A DNA stretch of 64,000 bases from an uncultured virus (IMG/VR IMGVR_UViG_3300040815_001293) (taxonomy: Duplodnaviria; Heunggongvirae; Uroviricota; Caudoviricetes), in the IMG/VR virus record IMGVR_UViG_3300040815_001293; one strand, written 5' to 3'. Below are positions 17,114-59,371 of this stretch, piece after piece. Every line of letters begins with the position of its first letter. Position 1 is the first letter of the stretch. Made by a program: the position numbers and the translations under genes. The notes beneath the pieces were generated by a model that saw nothing but the letters and a program-made list of their open reading frames with translations, ran no database searches and was not told the DNA's origin.

Positions 17114-18469
17114 ATGATTTCTATTACAAGATTATCTAATAATTTTGAAATAGTTGATCTCATTACTGATACCCAGTTAAACAAAACAAAGTTAATGCGT
17201 TTTGCTTCTGGGTATCAACAACTTTTCCTTAAACATAATCTAAAAAAAGGTGACAGAATTGGACTTGCTTTGCAAGAAGACTTCCATCATCTTGCCTGTG
17301 TCTTCGCGGCAATTGATTATGGACTTATAATTGTTATAAGTGGCGAACATGAAATAACAAATGAATATATTTCTAGAAGACAAATAAAAGCATTTATATC
17401 ACGGGGTGTACAACCTTGTACAGTTCATGCAACTAATGTTAATCATATCGAGTTAATAGAAGATGTTACTGAATCAGATGAAGATTACATTATTGATCAT
17501 TCTGATATTTTAGTAGAAGCATTAACAAGTGGTAGTACTGGAAAACCTAAGTGTATTCAACATACACATTTTAGTGTAGAAAGTGCAACAGAAAATAGCA
17601 TAAAACATTATTGGAAAGAAGCAGACACTAGTTGGTTTTTTCACAACATTGTACATTTAGGTGTAAGCAGTGTTTACTTTTTTCCTGCATTGTTTTCTAG
17701 TAAAAGAATTATTTTACCTCCGTTAGATAATCCATATGATGAAGTATTACTGTCTAAGTATAAACCAGACATAATGTTAGTATTTCCATCACATTACCAA
17801 CAGTATTCTAGACAAGGAATACATTTAAGAGATTTAAGTCACGTTAAGTGGGTACTAACAGGCGGAAGTGTAATAGACAATTCTTTTATTAGACGCATGA
17901 TAAAAAATCAAGGCGTAGAAAAAGTTGCAGTAATATACGGACTTACTGAATGTTTACCACCTTTAATACATAAAGTCGTTGACAAAGAAAATTTAGACTC
18001 GTATAATGTTAAAGAGATGGGTTACATCATCGACAGTACAGGAACATACGATATTAACAAAGATGAAATACTTACAATTAAAGGTAGTAATCATTTATGT
18101 AAAAGTATAAACGACAAACCTGTAGATACATTTATTACTCAAGATGTTGTAAGTGCAGGTAGTGATTCATTTTTCTTTGAAAAACGTAATAGCGATTTAA
18201 TAAGAATAAATGATACATTAATAAATCCACAACAACTAGTACCAAATTGGTTAGATGGTTATTGTTGTGTCTTTAGTACTTCACAGACACACGTTGTAGT
18301 GGTTATGCATCACAAAAATGTAAAAATAAAAGAGTTGATTCAGAAACTAACTGATAACGGAATCAACCATGATAAATTAATTACGCCGATAAAACTTAAT
18401 GTTCTCGGCAAACCAGATATCAATAAATTAAAGGGAATCTATGATAGGGCAAATAAGGGCACATCTTAA
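17114..18469 (+). CDS. ANL-superfamily adenylate-forming enzyme (acyl-CoA synthetase / AMP-binding)
   Basis: P-loop TSGSTGKPK, TGGS, YGLTE, TQD and C-terminal GKPD (catalytic Lys) motifs. Confidence 0.85.
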   Translation: MISITRLSNNFEIVDLITDTQLNKTKLMRFASGYQQLFLKHNLKKGDRIGLALQEDFHHLACVFAAIDYGLIIVISGEHEITNEYISRRQIKAFISRGVQPCTVHATNVNHIELIEDVTESDEDYIIDHSDILVEALTSGSTGKPKCIQHTHFSVESATENSIKHYWKEADTSWFFHNIVHLGVSSVYFFPALFSSKRIILPPLDNPYDEVLLSKYKPDIMLVFPSHYQQYSRQGIHLRDLSHVKWVLTGGSVIDNSFIRRMIKNQGVEKVAVIYGLTECLPPLIHKVVDKENLDSYNVKEMGYIIDSTGTYDINKDEILTIKGSNHLCKSINDKPVDTFITQDVVSAGSDSFFFEKRNSDLIRINDTLINPQQLVPNWLDGYCCVFSTSQTHVVVVMHHKNVKIKELIQKLTDNGINHDKLITPIKLNVLGKPDINKLKGIYDRANKGTS

Positions 18470-18683
18470 AGAAGCCGGCAAATCGTATTTCGCACATACA
18501 AAATTTGCAATCGTGGCTGGCTTAGACTTGATACTAACCGGTATCATCAGCATCATACACGGCATTGTTCCAACTCTGTTTCCTTTTTATGCAGAGAAAA
18601 AGATTGACGAATACCACCAGAAGGTGTTATTGTTAAACAAACATAGGAAGAAGAATGCCAAGCAAACAAAAAGCAAAAGGTAG
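18441..18683 (+). CDS. Small hydrophobic protein, DUF6356-like
   Basis: HLKEAGKSYFAH..FA...G......IIHGIVP.LF pattern, recalled from memory. Confidence 0.55.
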   Translation: MIGQIRAHLKEAGKSYFAHTKFAIVAGLDLILTGIISIIHGIVPTLFPFYAEKKIDEYHQKVLLLNKHRKKNAKQTKSKR

Positions 18684-19164
18684 TAATTGGGAAAGAGACG
18701 TTGCACGTTTCTTATCTGATCTATATCAGGAATCTTTTATTAGAGCCCCTGGTTCAGGAGCCTATGTAGGCGGAACTAATACTGTCCGTAAAGAAGTATT
18801 ACATGAAGGTCAAATACGTGGATTCAAAGGGGACATTGTTCCTGGACAATCATTTCCAAAATTTAATGCAGAATGCAAATCGTATAAAGACTTTCCATTT
18901 CATCAACTGTTAACTTCAGACAAAGTTCGTATGCTGGAAGACTGGCTGGACCAATTAATGGATGCGGCAGATGATGGTGACTTCAATATTTTAATAATGA
19001 AGTTTAACAACAAAGGCAAATTTGTAGCAACCCCCTCAACACATCAACTTAAAACAACACGACAATTCACATATCATTCCCCAAAGCACAACACATGGCT
19101 CATTACAGGCTTCGACGAATTTTGGCAAAGAAACGCAGACAGAGTTAAGACTCTGTGTGCATAG
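18655..19164 (+). CDS. Holliday junction resolvase-like PD-(D/E)XK nuclease
   Basis: SKQKAKGSNWERDVA N-terminus; GDI...ECK catalytic motif. Confidence 0.8.
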   Translation: MPSKQKAKGSNWERDVARFLSDLYQESFIRAPGSGAYVGGTNTVRKEVLHEGQIRGFKGDIVPGQSFPKFNAECKSYKDFPFHQLLTSDKVRMLEDWLDQLMDAADDGDFNILIMKFNNKGKFVATPSTHQLKTTRQFTYHSPKHNTWLITGFDEFWQRNADRVKTLCA

Positions 19165-19184
19165 GCAAATCATTTAGCACATAA

Positions 19185-19545
19185 GGTTGGCGGGCCAGTT
19201 TATAATACCGCTGTGGAAAAACTTATAGAGATATAAGACACGCAACACACTATGAAACACGGCAGACCGTGAATGTCCATTCAAACAAATTGGGACGTGG
19301 ATTGGTGTAGTACGAATGCTAACGTATGACAAACGCACATAACTCTTAAAAACTGTAACGATAGGAACGAGGTTACAGACTGCTAACGCAGGATCAGTAT
19401 AGGTTGGGAAAGGCTAGAGCCCATAGAGTTGCGATAAAATACCTATTTCCAATAAAGTCTGGCTGGGGCGAACTCACATGAAGACAGGACGGAACCTTAA
19501 AAGTGGTTCCGTCTGACTGAAACAATCTACATGATGACTATCGCT
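19185..19545 (+). ncRNA. Putative large structured non-coding RNA, family unassigned
   Basis: ORF-free ~475-nt gap, richer in G+C than other intergenic gaps, with at least 10 complementary stems including long-range and crossing pairs (see findings). Confidence 0.7.
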
Positions 19546-19581
19546 TCGCTCTTAACTTATATGTATTTCTAATTAAAAATA

Positions 19582-19628
19582 AACAACGAACGAAAGTGAA
19601 GTTGTTAGATGTACGAAGTACATCTTTT
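19582..19628. terminator. Tandem hairpins between convergent operons (terminator or DNA hairpins)
   Basis: AACAAC...GTTGTT (19582-19606), then perfect AGATGTAC-GAA-GTACATCT (19607-19625) followed by TTT. Confidence 0.55.
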
Positions 19629-19640
19629 AATGTGAATCTA

Positions 19641-19829
19641 TTATAAGATAGGTAATCCAGTTTTATTAACTGTTTTAATATTCTCTTCGATAATTTCGGC
19701 TATATGTTTAGTGTCAGATCTCGACAACATATAAGCCTGATCTAAATTAATACCACCACGCATATACCATACGATTCGAGTAAGTTCTTTTTTTATAATT
19801 TGGGCTTCTTTGTCGTAGTCTTTAACCAT
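19641..19829 (-). CDS. Small baseplate/tail assembly chaperone (gp51-like); probable -1 frameshift extension of the upstream gene
   Basis: WYMRGGINLDQAYMLS motif; the frame is open upstream of the ATG as far as the slippery site at 19871-19880. Confidence 0.7.
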   Translation of the reverse strand: MVKDYDKEAQIIKKELTRIVWYMRGGINLDQAYMLSRSDTKHIAEIIEENIKTVNKTGLPIL

Positions 19830-19864
19830 CTGTGCAATTTCTTCGTTGGCGAGACTCAGAAGCC

Positions 19865-20701
19865 TTATACGAAAAAATTTGCGTTATCGAATAATATTGG
19901 AGTCGACAACTCCGTTTCACAGTTAGAACACTTACCTTCAAATTGTTTAAAACTGTTTTTATCTCTTTGTTGGTCCAGGTGATTTTGTACCGCTTTAAAA
20001 GTTTTTCTATCAACGTTTGCTACAAACTCTGCAATATGATTTGGATCCTCTACAACAACTCCATTAGACATTTCAATTTTACAAATTGTTTTTCCAATTA
20101 ACCCTACTGTTAAGGCAGTAAGTCTTAAAAATGCATCTTGAAATAATTCACGCTTCTTTTCATCGTCGATATTTTCATTATTAACAATTTTCATAATTTT
20201 TGATTCTTCAAAATTACGCAAACTTTCAGCATTAATTTCTTTATAGTTTAATGGTTGAAATGTAATTTTTAAATCACCTACTTCAAGTAAGTCGTCAAAT
20301 TTCCAATTTTTAGTTTCATCCATTAAATGTGTTAAGTCAATTCCAAAATCATTTTTGGTTTGACATTTAGGACAGCCGATGGTAATATCCATTTGCTCTC
20401 CATAAGTTGCAATACGAACGGCTATTAATAATGCGTCCATGTCGATACTAGGAACTTGCCAAGGATCCGAGATCGCTGGTACACAACTTCTTATTACTTC
20501 AACAGTACTAGCACCGTTGAGTAATGCATCTGGCGTTTTTAGGACTAACTCGTCCCTAGCAGTCATTGGGTAAATCCCAAGTTCGCCGTTAGGTGGCAAG
20601 TCTAAAACACCTTGTTTATAGTACTTTCCTTGACTAGGTAGTGCAATATAAACTTCTGGTTTACGAAAATATCCCACTAAAGGGTTTTGATTGTTTTCCA
20701 T
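19865..20701 (-). CDS. gp26: Baseplate hub assembly chaperone (T4 gp26-like)
   Basis: LPSQG..Y, PMTARDE..L, D...LLIAVRIATYGE, two CxxC pairs, ends NFFV; divergent from the tape measure gene. Confidence 0.8.
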   Translation of the reverse strand: MENNQNPLVGYFRKPEVYIALPSQGKYYKQGVLDLPPNGELGIYPMTARDELVLKTPDALLNGASTVEVIRSCVPAISDPWQVPSIDMDALLIAVRIATYGEQMDITIGCPKCQTKNDFGIDLTHLMDETKNWKFDDLLEVGDLKITFQPLNYKEINAESLRNFEESKIMKIVNNENIDDEKKRELFQDAFLRLTALTVGLIGKTICKIEMSNGVVVEDPNHIAEFVANVDRKTFKAVQNHLDQQRDKNSFKQFEGKCSNCETELSTPILFDNANFFV

Positions 20702-27971: not shown

Positions 27972-29219
27972 ATGTCTGATATTTTAGCAGAAGGTCGTTG
28001 GGACAATACTAAAGAAGCCCTTTTAGATGGTTTACAAGGTACTCGTCGCAAGACAATGTCTACTATCCTGGAAAACACTAAACGCCACTTAACAGAAGCG
28101 GCAACTAGTGGCGCAACAGCGGCAGGTGGAGTAGCACAATTAAACAAAGTAATTTTACCCGTAATTAGACGTGTAATGCCTACAGTTATCGCAAACGAAA
28201 TTGTTGGTGTACAGCCTATGCAAGGTCCAATTGCACAAATTCACACTTTAAGAGTTAAGTACAACTCTGCAAACACTATTAACTCGGCAAATGGTGCGGC
28301 TATCCAAGCAACAACAAATGACGGTACAAACTTAGGTGCTGGTGACGAAGCGTTAGGTCCAAAGGACATAGCGGCTGGTTATTCAGGTACTGAAAGTTCG
28401 GCAGGTGTTAAAGCGGCAGGTACAACAGCAAGTGGATACTTAGAAGGTGTTCCAGGTAATACTCTTTCTATTGAAATTCTACGTCAAACAGTAGAAGCTC
28501 AAACTAGAAGATTATCAGCTCGTTGGACTTTTGAAGCGGCACAAGATGCTCAATCACAACAAGGTATCGATGTAGAAGCAGAAATCATGGCGGCATTAGC
28601 CCAAGAGATTACTGCTGAGATCGACCAAGAAGTTCTTGCAAGTTTAAGAACTTTAGCGACAGCAGGTTCAACGGCTTTCGGTGCAAACACTGAAGCATAT
28701 GACCAAGCGGCAGTTAGTGGTACAGCGACATACGTGGGTGATGAACACGCGGCATTGGCTGTAGCAATTAACAGAGTTGCTAACAAAATCGCACAGAGAA
28801 CAAGACGTGGCGCAGGTAACTGGGCTGTTGTTTCTCCAACTGCATTAACAATGTTACAAAGTGCATCAACTTCAGCGTTCGCAAGAACAACTGAAGGTAC
28901 TTTTGAAGCACCAACAAATACTAAATTTGTAGGTACTTTAAACAGTGCAATGAAAATCTACGTTGACAGTTATGCGGCTGATTCAGAAGCAGTTCTTGTT
29001 GGTTACAAAGGTAGTTCAGAAGCGGACGCGGCGGCATTCTATTGTCCTTACGTTCCACTAATGAGTTCAGGTGTAGTACTTGATCCAGCAACATTAGAGC
29101 CACTAGTAGGCTTTATGACACGTTACGGTTACAGTGAACTTTCACAAACTAATAGTTCACTTGGAAACGCGGCGGATTACGTTGGTAGAGTAACTATTGC
29201 TAACCCAACATTTAGTTAA
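27972..29219 (+). CDS. gp23: Major capsid protein
   Basis: RRVMPTVIANEIVGVQPMQGP, EIMAALAQEITAEIDQE, FYCPYVPL and GFMTRYG motifs. Confidence 0.97.
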   Translation: MSDILAEGRWDNTKEALLDGLQGTRRKTMSTILENTKRHLTEAATSGATAAGGVAQLNKVILPVIRRVMPTVIANEIVGVQPMQGPIAQIHTLRVKYNSANTINSANGAAIQATTNDGTNLGAGDEALGPKDIAAGYSGTESSAGVKAAGTTASGYLEGVPGNTLSIEILRQTVEAQTRRLSARWTFEAAQDAQSQQGIDVEAEIMAALAQEITAEIDQEVLASLRTLATAGSTAFGANTEAYDQAAVSGTATYVGDEHAALAVAINRVANKIAQRTRRGAGNWAVVSPTALTMLQSASTSAFARTTEGTFEAPTNTKFVGTLNSAMKIYVDSYAADSEAVLVGYKGSSEADAAAFYCPYVPLMSSGVVLDPATLEPLVGFMTRYGYSELSQTNSSLGNAADYVGRVTIANPTFS

Positions 29220-29293: not shown

Positions 29294-29311
29294 GACTAAA
29301 TATTTGTACAA

Positions 29312-29359
29312 CGTTCAGCCGATATAGGCCGGAAGTAAGCAACTATGCTGAAGGAACGC
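29312..29359 (+). ncRNA. Glutamine-I riboswitch aptamer (glnA RNA motif)
   Basis: CGTTC-A-GCC(GATATA)GGC-C-GGAAGTAA-GCA(ACTA)TGC-TGAAG-GAACG: P1 CGTTC/GAACG, two hairpins and the GGAAGUAA/UGAAG E-loop strands of the glnA motif. It lies 25 nt upstream of an ATG. Confidence 0.85.
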
Positions 29360-29384
29360 ACTTAACTGTAAAAAGGAGAGTGTA

Positions 29385-29576
29385 ATGAACAGACATGATC
29401 ATCTACTTAAATCATACCGTGAGCAAAAAATGAGAGAACGCAAGGAGAAAATCCTTATGAAAACTCGTAGTGAAGTAAACGTGTATGGAAATGGTACGAC
29501 TGGATATACTGTTACTACTGGAGAAAATTCTGGTAAAGTTTTAAAACATATATCTGTTAACCACGACAACAAGTAA
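29385..29576 (+). CDS. Small basic protein downstream of the glutamine riboswitch
   Basis: 63 aa, strong AAGGAG RBS, Arg/Lys-rich N-terminus. Confidence 0.75.
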   Translation: MNRHDHLLKSYREQKMRERKEKILMKTRSEVNVYGNGTTGYTVTTGENSGKVLKHISVNHDNK

Positions 29577-29604: not shown

Positions 29605-29679
29605 GTATTGCTTATCATAATGATAAGTTTATGGGGAGCCATCCTCGTATTACATAGAACGTAACATAGGAGAAATAAA

Positions 29680-30132
29680 ATGGGAAGACCAATAAACAAA
29701 AGATTTTTCGGCGTACCTACAGCAGGTGGCAACGAAATTAAAGTTAACTTTCATGACGGTTCATCCGTTGTTGAAGGATATATCGCAAAACAACTAGGCA
29801 GTAAAAAGTTTTCAGTTAAAGCAACTGGAACACCGGGCACTGCATACATTCGTACACTAAAAACTGGTATTTTACCAGCGGCATTAACTGGTACAGATAT
29901 GATTATTTCTGTAAAAGGTGATGATGGTGAAACTTATGGTGTGTCTAAAATTGCTGGCAGAAAAGTTACACTAGCACAACCAAGTGCTACTGGCTCTAAC
30001 GCTTTAGACGGCAAATCAGTTGCATGGAACTTTACAGTTTCAGGTTCTGATGGAGCAGTACAGTTTGAAGAAGCAGGTGACGACGATACTGCGGCAGGTA
30101 CAGACGATACAGACTTCACAGAAGACGCTTAA
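29680..30132 (+). CDS. Hypothetical virion protein
   Basis: 150 aa, AGGAG RBS, own late promoter and terminator. Confidence 0.7.
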   Translation: MGRPINKRFFGVPTAGGNEIKVNFHDGSSVVEGYIAKQLGSKKFSVKATGTPGTAYIRTLKTGILPAALTGTDMIISVKGDDGETYGVSKIAGRKVTLAQPSATGSNALDGKSVAWNFTVSGSDGAVQFEEAGDDDTAAGTDDTDFTEDA

Positions 30133-56731: not shown

Positions 56732-56962
56732 ATGGCTGATAAGTCGTTTGAAAGCGAATTAGAAGATTTAAAAAGATTAGCAGGGGTTGGTTCATATTCT
56801 GGATTGACCCCTTACTCATCTGTAGAAGAAAATGTTGGCAGTCTTGCTAACAAATTATCTAAAGTACAAAAGAAAAGAAAAATACAACCAGGCACAGAAG
56901 CATGGTTTAGACTTTGGTTTAGTAAACCTTGGTTAACAGGTGAAAAACCTTACGACGATTAA
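56732..56962 (+). CDS. Small hypothetical protein
   Basis: 76 aa; LEDLKRLAGV and IQPGTEAWFRLWF. Confidence 0.7.
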   Translation: MADKSFESELEDLKRLAGVGSYSGLTPYSSVEENVGSLANKLSKVQKKRKIQPGTEAWFRLWFSKPWLTGEKPYDD

Positions 56963-57498
56963 TCAGAAAATTTGTGTTGTTCAGTAACACTAATATATTG
57001 TAACCATTTAGGGTGTTTAATTTTAAATGGCATTTTACGTCTAAGAGTTGCAAGGTTATAGTAGTCGGGCTTATACGGCGTATTTAAGGGTCTAACGTTA
57101 GTTTTATCGCCCTTCTTAACATTACAAGACATACAAGCAGTAGTGCAATTTTCCCAACTAGTTTTACCACCCTTGCTAATTGGAATGATGTGGTCAATAG
57201 TTAGTTCTTTAGGATTAAAAGTATCAGCACAATATTGACATTGAAACATATCACGTAGATACATATTATGTCTAGCAAATCGAATAGTTTTTTGAATGGG
57301 AAAATAGTCGTTAAGAGCTACAACGGCAGGTACATTAAATTCCATATTAGGACTATGCACTTGCCAGTCTTGGTACTCATCAACTACTTTAACCCTGTCT
57401 AAATAGCATAATTTTATAGCAGATTGCCATGAAATTAGACTTAAAGGCAGTACACTTAAAGGTTGATAGTTTCCGTTTAGAACCAAACAGTCAGACAT
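56959..57498 (-). CDS. HNH endonuclease (McrA-like)
   Basis: LVLNGNYQPL N-terminus; RD...CQYC...LTIDHIIPISKGGKTSWEN..TAC..CN.KKGD. Confidence 0.93.
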   Translation of the reverse strand: MSDCLVLNGNYQPLSVLPLSLISWQSAIKLCYLDRVKVVDEYQDWQVHSPNMEFNVPAVVALNDYFPIQKTIRFARHNMYLRDMFQCQYCADTFNPKELTIDHIIPISKGGKTSWENCTTACMSCNVKKGDKTNVRPLNTPYKPDYYNLATLRRKMPFKIKHPKWLQYISVTEQHKFSD

Positions 57499-57796: not shown

Positions 57797-59371
57797 ATGA
57801 CATACAAAGCCCTCGACGGCGTATTAGTAAAAAAGCCACATCAGAACCAACGTTGGACTGAAGAACAGTTAATAGATTTTAAAGAGTGTGCAGATTCTAA
57901 CACAGGACCTGCTTATTTTTTAGGTAAGTATTTTCATATTCAGCACCCTGTTGACGGCAAGATTCTTTATAAACCATACAAGTATCAAGAAACTTTAGTC
58001 AACAGTTATCACTCTAATAGATTTAGTATTAATTTATTGAGTAGACAAATGGGAAAAACTACAACTGCGGCTGGATACTTGTTGTGGTATGCTATGTTTG
58101 TACCAGACAGTACTATATTAATTGCGGCACACAAATATTCAGGTGCTCAAGAAATCATGCAGAAGATTCGATACGCATATGAACTTATGCCAGATCATAT
58201 TAGAGCGGGGGTAACAAGTTACAATAAAGGCAGTATAGAATTTGAAAACGGAAGTAGAATTGTAGCACAAGCAACAACAGAAAACACAGGACGTGGTATG
58301 AGTATTACGTTATTGTACTGTGATGAGTTTGCGTTTGTAAGACCAACTATTGCAAAAGAGTTTTGGACAAGTATTTCACCAACATTAGCAACTGGTGGTA
58401 AAGCAATTATTACAAGCACACCTAACAGTGATGAAGATCAGTTTTGGTTATTGTGGACAGAAGCAAACAGGACTATTGATGATTACGGACATCCTTTAAA
58501 AGATGGAATAGGGATAAACGGATTTTTTGGCTTTAAAGCATTATGGCGAGAACATCCTGACAGAGATGATGAATGGGCTAAAGAAGAATTAGGTCGTATT
58601 GGAGAAGAACGTTTTAAACGTGAAATGGACTGCGAACCAATTATATTTGATGAAACATTAATCAATGCAATTAGATTAGCAGAGATGGAAGGTAAAGAGC
58701 CAATTGAAAGACAAGGTCAAGTACGTTGGTTTAAAAAACCTAAAAAAGGCAGTATATACTTAATAAGTTTAGATCCAAGTTTAGGAACGGGTGGAGACAA
58801 TGCGGCAATACAGGTTATAGAAATGCCTTCACTAGAGCAAGTTGCAGAGTTTATGCACAATAAGACACCTATTGTACAGCAAATAAAAATAATGAAAGAA
58901 ATAGGTGAGTATCTAGTACAGCAAATAGATGAACCTAATGATGTTTATTACAGCGTTGAAAACAATACGCTAGGAGAGGCGGCACTAGTTACAATACAAG
59001 AAATTGGTGAAGAAAATATACCAGGTTTCTTTATTAGTGAACCTAAAGGACATGGTAATAGCAAAAGGTTTCGTAGAGGATTTAATACAACACATAAATC
59101 AAAAATCTCAGCCTGTGCTAAATTAAAGAGTTTAATTGAAACTAAAAGATTAACTATTAATAGTAGACCTCTGATATCAGAACTAAAGTCATTTGTGGCT
59201 GTGGGCAGTAGTTATCAAGCCAGACCAGGAGAAACTGACGATTTAGTTATGTCTTTAGTACTAGCAATACGCATGAGTATGGTGTTAAAGAAGTATGATG
59301 CTGGTATAGATGAGCTTTTAAGCGACAATTTTGACGATATAGTAGAACCCATGCCTACATTAATGTTATAA
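57797..59371 (+). CDS. gp17: Terminase large subunit
   Basis: YQ motif, Walker A SRQMGKTT, Walker B LLYCDEFAFV, ITSTP coupling motif, nuclease LDPS.G.GGD and DDLVM. Confidence 0.96.
   Translation: MTYKALDGVLVKKPHQNQRWTEEQLIDFKECADSNTGPAYFLGKYFHIQHPVDGKILYKPYKYQETLVNSYHSNRFSINLLSRQMGKTTTAAGYLLWYAMFVPDSTILIAAHKYSGAQEIMQKIRYAYELMPDHIRAGVTSYNKGSIEFENGSRIVAQATTENTGRGMSITLLYCDEFAFVRPTIAKEFWTSISPTLATGGKAIITSTPNSDEDQFWLLWTEANRTIDDYGHPLKDGIGINGFFGFKALWREHPDRDDEWAKEELGRIGEERFKREMDCEPIIFDETLINAIRLAEMEGKEPIERQGQVRWFKKPKKGSIYLISLDPSLGTGGDNAAIQVIEMPSLEQVAEFMHNKTPIVQQIKIMKEIGEYLVQQIDEPNDVYYSVENNTLGEAALVTIQEIGEENIPGFFISEPKGHGNSKRFRRGFNTTHKSKISACAKLKSLIETKRLTINSRPLISELKSFVAVGSSYQARPGETDDLVMSLVLAIRMSMVLKKYDAGIDELLSDNFDDIVEPMPTLML

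Follow-up and report, generated by a model that had tools for sequence, protein, structure and literature searches.

Large RNAs that combine many pseudoknots with invariant junctions are rare, and where their function has been solved, most have proved to be ribozymes or the cores of RNA-protein machines. Among the large ornate RNAs are GOLLD and ROOL, which often reside on phages and prophages. Bacterial small RNAs derived from 3' untranslated regions are processed from the end of an mRNA, and free-standing homing endonuclease genes of the T4 SegB/SegE type adjoin conserved RNA genes, as in the case of the tRNA cluster. GOLLD and ROOL are described as forming RNA-only complexes in a study by cryo-EM (10.1101/2024.12.08.627333), and for the jumbo phage PA5oct, the closest cultured relative of the phages considered here, a further report describes ncRNA001-004 as abundant non-coding transcripts of 236-619 nt that were defined by RNA-seq (PMC7318152).

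The window investigated in this study, a stretch of 64,000 nucleotides from an uncultured virus, covers the structural-gene region of a T4-like myovirus with genes for baseplate, portal, capsid, sheath, tube and terminase. In this region, the gap after a nuclease gene is a large non-coding RNA gene of about 375 nt on the plus strand, and our analysis has shown that positions 19163-19537 hold a single-copy gene for a compact RNA fold with multiple pseudoknots. The locus comprises the following features:

17114-18683: genes for an AMP-binding enzyme (PF00501) and DUF6356, following the Hc1-like ORF and preceding the endonuclease gene
18655..19164, plus strand: upstream gene for a PDDEXK_15/RusA-like phage endonuclease (Pfam PF24608, E 1.1e-23; phrog_244)
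19163..19537, plus strand: conserved core of the structured RNA (alignments A2, A3 and A5 and structure counts)
19607..19630, plus strand: hairpin and T run, likely 3' end of the transcript (terminator scan)
19641-19829, minus strand: 62-aa ORF, 3' of the gap

Like GOLLD and ROOL, the RNA is large, heavily structured, phage-borne and was found by comparative metagenome analysis but, unlike both, it matches nothing in Rfam 15 by sequence or structure, is smaller (about 375 nt), occupies a fixed syntenic site in aquatic jumbo myoviruses and carries in its 3' module a pair of direct repeats that co-vary. With small RNAs derived from 3' untranslated regions it shares a start in the region of the upstream stop codon, an end at a hairpin or terminator and the lack of a clear promoter of its own, whereas it is several times larger and far more structured and no seed-target pairing was found in the window. 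The T4 SegB/SegE case is paralleled in marine phages, where a gene of the GIY-YIG homing type (PF19835) adjoins this highly conserved RNA gene, although the parallel explains the neighbour rather than the RNA and the window contains PDDEXK_15 instead. The RNA finally resembles ncRNA001-004 as a sizeable non-coding RNA in a related jumbo phage (gp46 of PA5oct is 49.9% identical), but it is not homologous to them, and those transcripts lie in other genome regions. A search of PA5oct with nhmmer and with R1, a covariance model of the 3' domain, detected no homolog, neither at ncRNA001/002 nor in the syntenic region from gp46 to the hub gene. The latter region of PA5oct (L401 5700-7180; 75.7-77.2 kb), which extends from a RusA-like resolvase to the hub, contains only four annotated ORFs of 39-50 codons, and none of the four ncRNAs of the same report (PMC7318152) falls into it.

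The earlier note had placed the start of the element at 19185, about 22 nt downstream of position 19163, where conservation begins. Here, the TAG stop of the endonuclease gene (19162-19164) overlaps with the first conserved bases of the RNA and the alignments are conserved from AGGCAAA onwards. In three loci (L007, L008 and L010; 3510-3534), the endonuclease stop is separated from the RNA by an additional 23 bases, which repeat the junction motif (CATAGGCA ... TGGCAAATC) and reflect a small duplication at the 5' end of the RNA. The gap is free of convincing ORFs, in line with the earlier note, since the region 19165-19640 contains only two frames on the minus strand (54 aa from a GTG and 43 aa from a TTG), neither of which is convincing. 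A protein-coding small ORF was rejected because a minus-strand frame of at least 50 codons is retained in only 25 of 76 homologs, the entropy by phase is flat in three ungapped blocks of the alignment, without codon 3-periodicity, and indels shift the short AUG frames. Small ORFs starting from the ATGs of the repeats were dismissed in a similar manner, as their peptides are unconserved and their frames shift. The predicted density of pairing is reflected in a folding energy of the plus strand of -105.8 kcal/mol compared to -90.3 +/- 5.5 kcal/mol in shuffled sequences (z -2.84, with none of 100 shuffles as good), whereas the minus strand shows a z of -2.40 against its shuffles. This excess in folding energy alone is modest and it is the comparative evidence that is decisive. 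The suggestion that G-U pairs favour the plus strand proved correct: at five pairs, a plus-strand G-U is found in 40, 57, 67, 65 and 56 of 76 homologs (as GU in 40, UG in 57 and GU in 67 at three of them), and such pairs fit the plus strand only, because the opposite strand would contain A-C mismatches.

Evidence for the fold comes from A5, an alignment of 76 distinct full-length homologs that was assembled from the pattern-scan matches listed. Following a scan of all column pairs for stacked, covarying runs, we specified a model with 72 pairs distributed over 13 helices. In this model, 96.1% of the cells of A5 are paired, compared to 33-41% upon sliding the 3' partners by 1-3 columns. The check for covariation in relatives that had been proposed earlier turned out in favour of the RNA, with changes on both sides at 29 of the 72 pairs in the 76 homologs and a covariation score of 0.260, compared to 0.130 in shuffles, that was reached in none of 500 cases. 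A first alignment of nine sequences had already contained compensatory changes at 22 of 89 predicted pairs. The model includes at least two pseudoknots, and while its peripheral hairpins differ in length, its junctions and loops are invariant. Its elements, all on the plus strand, are:

19174-79 with 19317-22, plus strand: PK1, TTAGCA with TGCTAA in the H5 loop (6 pairs, 100% paired, 3 covarying)
19189-93/19208-12, plus strand: H1 hairpin (comparative alignment)
19213-15/19239-41, plus strand: H3, enclosing H2 (comparative alignment)
19222-19237, plus strand: H2 hairpin with GAGA loop (comparative alignment)
19247-53/19302-08, plus strand: H4, ACACTAT/TTGGTGT (7 pairs, 97.6% paired, 3 covarying)
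19310-14/19323-27, plus strand: H5 hairpin, GTACG/CGTAT, whose loop forms PK1 (5 pairs, 4 covarying)
19341-46 with 19425-29, plus strand: Pa, long-range helix of AACTCT with AGAGT (6 of 6 pairs covary)
19353-60/19371-78, plus strand: H6, with invariant GGAACGA in its loop
19380-83/19388-91, plus strand: H7, site of long insertions in some homologs
19393-97 with 19459-63, plus strand: PK3, alternative to PK4 (96.6% paired, 2 covarying)
19396-98 with 19413-15, plus strand: PK4, AGT with GCT in the H9 loop (98.7% paired, 3 of 3 pairs covary)
19399-404 with 19441-46, plus strand: H8, ATAGGT with ACCTAT, pseudoknot with Pa (100% paired, 2 covarying)
19405-08/19420-23, plus strand: H9 (comparative alignment)
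19464-67/19475-78, plus strand: HA hairpin with loop GCGAACT (comparative alignment)
19473-19483, plus strand: direct repeat A, CTCACATGAAG (comparative alignment)
19486-96/19505-15, plus strand: H10 hairpin, AGGACGGAACC/GGTTCCGTCTG (11 pairs, 98.1% paired, rich in G-U)
19526-19536, plus strand: direct repeat B, TCTACATGATG (comparative alignment)

In this architecture, H4 (19247..19308) encloses variable hairpins, including CACGG-CAGA-CCGTG at 19258-19271, and Pa (19341..19429) encloses H6, H7 and H9. PK3 and PK4 appear as competing pairings, the choice between them being ambiguous at the level of the alignment. Most of the local hairpins recognized in the earlier note (CTTATA/TATAAG, CACGG/CCGTG, ACACTA/TGGTGT, CTGTAAC/GTTACAG, CTGC/GCAG and GGACGGAACC/GGTTCCGTCT) are borne out by the comparative data and so are, as real features, the flanking ACATGA repeats it had described on both sides of a hairpin. 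Its pseudoknot between ATAGGT and ACCTAT equally stands, as H8, although the helix that is crossed is Pa, whereas the claimed CGCAAC/GTTGCG is unconserved. Its hairpin TAGTA-CGAA-TGCTA has given way to H5 in combination with PK1, and its three closing stems (TTTAT/ATAAA, TGGAAA/TTTCCA and CGCAAC/GTTGCG) did not hold, since they are paired to 62.7% across the family, which is matched by 185 of 500 shuffles. CGCAAC/GTTGCG may be an extension that is peculiar to the lineage of the window. A pairing of GGCC with GGCT is feasible in all homologs but invariant and thus without covariation signal.

A pronounced feature of the RNA concerns its 3' module, where the repeats A and B, a lineage-specific motif of 9-11 nt, are located on either side of H10. 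Both copies are identical at four variable positions in 43, 45, 45 and 40 of 45 sequences, and identity is found in 190 of 225 repeat cells compared to 135.7 +/- 5.3 after shuffling of B among sequences, a value reached in none of 2000 shuffles in a comparison that is not corrected for phylogeny. Among 136 unique 3' domains, a variable repeat base is C in both copies in 114 cases and G in both in 22, without any mixed case. Rare variants are also shared by the two repeats (ATAA in L032 and L036, ATCA in L061), and the 4-5 nt preceding each unit (GTCT, TGTG, GATG, TGAC or TGGC) tend to match too, as judged by eye. This concerted change is a covariation of identity and not of base pairs. From their sequence pattern, the repeats could serve as a pair of sites for the same partner, pair alternatively with a single upstream strand, as in a switch, or mark two positions of processing. 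At least two types of 3' domain exist, with repeats containing CACATGA and TACATGA around a hairpin GATGGAACC/GGTTCCGTC in a 'C' clade and CAGATGA and TAGATGA, or CGGATGA and TGGATGA, around a hairpin TTGCCC/GGGCAA in a 'G' clade, and there are several distinct 5' domains as well. The single-stranded 3' tail is conserved inside each clade and thus differs from a variable guide segment.

The RNA is known from well over a hundred contigs of uncultured aquatic phages. A search with the endonuclease protein retrieved 80 loci on viral contigs; among 120 candidate stretches, 118 could be confirmed. With blastn, the element aligns in 11 of these 80 loci at 70-99% identity, and in 49 of the 80 R1 finds a match that lies downstream of the PDDEXK_15 gene in the same orientation. 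When the viral collection was scanned with patterns of the most conserved 3' motifs, one scan yielded 81 stretches and two more at least 120 each. Between the window and marine homologs, the RNA is 64% identical overall and 80% in the 3' domain, while the proteins are about 38% (gp26 and orf62) or 55-60% (gp47, gp46 and gp55, with 58% for gp46) identical, and the overall value for the RNA is no higher than expected for DNA that encodes the 55-60% identical gp46, gp47 and gp55. A blastn search with the window element and one marine homolog against 50,697 phage records returned no match. No bacterial chromosomal homolog was seen in one pattern scan of genome contigs, in which three loci matched. 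Two of them, L403 and L404 (335 kb and 153 kb), belong to one MAG labelled Candidatus Neomarinimicrobiota and carry the order gp47-gp46-SegE-RNA; they look like phage sequence that was binned with a bacterial genome and offer no evidence of a host. The third, a short contig from a cyanobacterial MAG, fits the pattern but not the family profile. Many viral contigs in the range L282-L361 terminate inside the RNA or at most about 150 nt away from it (such as L282, L286, L298, L301 and L304, and further L307, L340, L341, L346 and L361), which are probably assembly breaks at a sequence common to co-occurring strains. The distant endonuclease loci L066, L067, L070, L071 and L076-L079 show no match to the model of the 3' domain and their gaps of 720-740 nt may hold a different or diverged RNA. 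In the same loci, the region corresponding to 19574-19627, which leads up to the terminator hairpin and takes it in, shows 82-87% identity.

Throughout these phages, the RNA occupies one syntenic site, with gp55-gp47-gp46-Hc1 on one side and baseplate-hub genes on the other. The order common to the window and its marine relatives consists of gp55, gp47, gp46, a small Hc1-like ORF, a variable gene and the RNA, followed downstream by an ORF of 62-65 aa and a gp26-like hub gene, both on the minus strand, and a gp29-like gene on the plus strand. Among the matches listed, 119 marine loci with wide flanks contain gp47 in 57, gp46 in 63, the small ORF in 53, a SegE-type GIY-YIG gene (PF19835, E 2.3e-35) in 65 and the gp26-like hub gene in 57 cases. 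The window shares the upstream set of late sigma factor gp55, gp47, gp46 and Hc1-like ORF, while the genes for the AMP-binding enzyme, DUF6356 and PDDEXK_15 replace the marine SegE. The region 17114-18683, which has no counterpart in the marine relatives, looks like a spot for the insertion of cargo, and PDDEXK_15 is absent from the marine 16-kb loci. Elsewhere in the window, an HNH endonuclease gene (56959-57498, minus strand) lies immediately upstream of the gene for the large terminase (57797-59371). The gene immediately preceding the RNA is PDDEXK_15 in the window, a SegE GIY-YIG gene in marine phages and an ORF without assigned family in others, and in some PDDEXK_15 loci an unrelated ORF of 216-406 aa is inserted between nuclease and RNA. 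Since this upstream gene varies, the RNA is tied to a genomic position rather than to a particular nuclease and an RNA-guided nuclease is unlikely. The nearest cultured relatives of the window are the jumbo phages PA5oct and Atu_ph07 (gp46 identity 49.9% and 45.5%), and the carriers of the RNA are a clade of uncultured aquatic jumbo myoviruses that is distantly related to both. Large RNA-bearing records span 165-307 kb at an estimated completeness of 46-87%, pointing to genomes of about 350 kb, and each of the five large records contains a single match to the RNA.

The ends of the transcript are suggested by its surroundings. An ORF on the plus strand ends at the 5' end of the RNA in each of the 64 marine loci that extend far enough upstream, and the last codons of the upstream ORF fall within conserved RNA sequence. 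Matches resembling sigma-70 promoters number 8 compared to 4.9 +/- 1.9 expected, which does not exceed chance, and no promoter belonging to the RNA itself was found. In marine homologs, a hairpin follows directly after repeat B, and in the window transcription probably continues past the conserved core as far as the hairpin terminator at 19607-19630. This arrangement suggests a transcript derived from a 3' end. Words of the stretch occur in six RNA libraries and, in contigs from four of these libraries, the RNA is partly covered at a low depth of 2-11, with strand, ends and level not readable from such contigs and a carry-over of DNA being possible. In one run, the metatranscriptome contigs show a greater depth for the upstream gene than for the RNA.

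The absence of hallmarks of tRNA, tmRNA, RNase P and group I/II introns observed in the earlier note agrees with a count of zero genes by ARAGORN in the window and with the lack of an Rfam 15 match in the element, and the Rfam covariance-model check it had called for found no catalogued family. At E<=10, none of the 4227 families of Rfam 15 matches inside 19163-19537 in a search of 18900-19900, and at E<=1 eleven loci of other clades yielded one chance match to a lncRNA only. GOLLD, ROOL, HEARO, OLE, raiA, group I/II introns, RNase P, 6S, riboswitches and small ribozymes were rejected on these grounds. At gathering score, the window contains two hits, both elsewhere. These are a glutamine riboswitch aptamer (29310-29362, 54.6 bits) and a freshwater-2 motif (29611-29682, 59.8 bits), which flank a 63-aa ORF (29385-29576) just after the gene for the major head protein (27972-29219). 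Together with the strong covariation, the missing match in Rfam 15 upholds the proposal of a large phage RNA on the plus strand that possibly defines a new class.

Several further candidates were rejected. A guide RNA (omega RNA or reRNA of IscB/TnpB, or crRNA) lacks a constant nuclease family beside it. No match to or complement of 19-20 nt of the RNA is found elsewhere in the window within three mismatches, and an antisense role on the window genes is left without target at this limit. For a template RNA of the retron or DRT2 type, PF00078 is found in none of the five large records (46-87% complete, with controls matched in 3 of 14), and a repeat-bounded template with an open concatemer frame conflicts with a repeat period of 48-64 nt that shows no bias for multiples of three (the remainder being 0 in 17, 1 in 30 and 2 in 43 of 90 units). 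Concerning the idea of a RegA decoy, PF01818 occurs in none of five records, an uninformative absence as its control matched nowhere either. Box C/D or K-turn motifs, which call for tandem sheared G-A pairs from UGAUGA and CUGA boxes, were dismissed by eye, as several lineages (e.g. L034, L015 and L058) carry G in both units where A is required, and 17 of 80 C-clade sequences have lost the closing G-C pair. The defining positions of hammerhead, T-loop, K-turn/K-loop and 11-nt receptor are, again by eye, unconserved. A mimic of translation start sites is at odds with the AGGAG-type Shine-Dalgarno sequences used by the window genes and with the repeat motif occurring at no gene start. In the literature searched, we found no description of this RNA. 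A survey of IMG/VR lists more than ten thousand candidate structured RNAs, with motifs averaging 67 bases (PMC10690425). Three motifs of our RNA have no occurrence in the searched tables of its supplement, and fragments of the RNA may be listed in this survey unnamed. A coevolutionary mining of non-coding elements (10.64898/2026.09.22.753630) concerns an unrelated reverse-transcriptase array. The family thus appears new to the literature searched.

How the RNA might function can be approached from these features, and we prefer, with a confidence that falls slightly short of even, a trans-acting RNA scaffold that engages one partner in two copies through its 3' module. The RNA would be made as the 3' end of a transcript that reads through the upstream genes, as suggested by an upstream stop that lies in the first conserved bases and by the hairpin or terminator that follows. 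Once folded, it would act in trans without regulating its neighbours. Its pseudoknotted core would serve as scaffold, while a single sequence-specific partner, either protein or RNA, would occupy the 3' module in two copies or as a dimer, a proposal motivated by the two lineage-specific motif copies around H10 that change together. Only tentatively would we describe it as a new class of large phage RNA where the core is a catalytic or assembly scaffold and the co-evolving repeats either hold a dimeric partner or toggle between two folds. Nothing in the analysis points to a role as replication primer, which had been considered previously. We regard it as unlikely that the core is itself a catalytic fold, which may free the RNA from the upstream mRNA, cut at the repeats to release H10 or catalyse another reaction. 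The size, the GNRA-type loops, the pseudoknots, the invariant junctions and the variable peripheral hairpins are all typical of large ribozymes, a 5' end that abuts the stop of an ORF requires processing if an own promoter is absent, and the two identical motifs offer possible cleavage sites, but no ribozyme family of Rfam is found at E<=10, nor in the other clades, and the hammerhead core and the K-turn consensus are not recovered by eye.

A somewhat lower probability is assigned to an element that acts in cis at the 3' end of the gp55-gp47-gp46 operon, either as stabilizing or terminating 3' untranslated region or as a two-state switch that sets the 3'-end hairpin through alternative pairing of one upstream strand with repeat A or repeat B. 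The location on the same strand directly after these genes and the hairpin or terminator that follows would suit such a role. The same is true for the two GTCT segments (A5 columns 459-462 and 536-539), which can both pair with AGAT at 511-514, in 92.4% and about 97%, respectively, and for the matched variable base (C or G) of both repeats, which could pair with the same upstream strand. However, about 375 nt and 13 helices far exceed the needs of a terminator or stabilizer, the next genes in the window are convergent, leaving nothing downstream to regulate, the gene just upstream varies, and matched changes are also found at repeat positions that would be unpaired in the local hairpin. We consider it improbable that the conserved entity is a DNA element, such as an origin of replication, a site for packaging or recombination or simply a conserved target beside which homing endonuclease genes insert, with repeats as protein-binding sites. 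Co-varying direct repeats do resemble iterons, a SegE-type homing endonuclease gene abuts the RNA in marine phages and many viral contigs break in or beside it, yet the compensatory changes and the G-U pairs that are specific to one strand demonstrate that an RNA fold is under selection, and contig breaks are expected at any sequence common to co-occurring strains. Very improbable, finally, is a partner or guide RNA of the adjacent nuclease. Although a nuclease gene is found directly upstream in the clade of the window (PDDEXK_15) and in the marine clade (GIY-YIG), with a stop that overlaps with the RNA, these nucleases have unrelated folds, the marine 16-kb loci lack PDDEXK_15 and the intervening ORF of 216-406 aa separates nuclease and RNA in other loci. 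Moreover, no gene resembling TnpB, IscB or Cas was seen and the search for matching or complementary segments in the window, described above, was negative.

Collectively, the RNA is real, widespread, uncatalogued, multi-pseudoknotted and independent of the nuclease, while its mechanism is what we infer from these properties. Widespread at a fixed site in genomes of about 350 kb and outside of Rfam 15, it is a well-supported candidate for the rare kind of large RNA with many pseudoknots and invariant junctions, and with about 375 nt it is of a suitable size for cryo-EM. The two repeats changing in step are unusual and provide a concrete handle towards a partner. If a catalytic or assembly scaffold is indeed combined with a repeat module, the RNA would constitute a phage RNA machine or switch without catalogued counterpart that is present clade-wide in aquatic jumbo phages.
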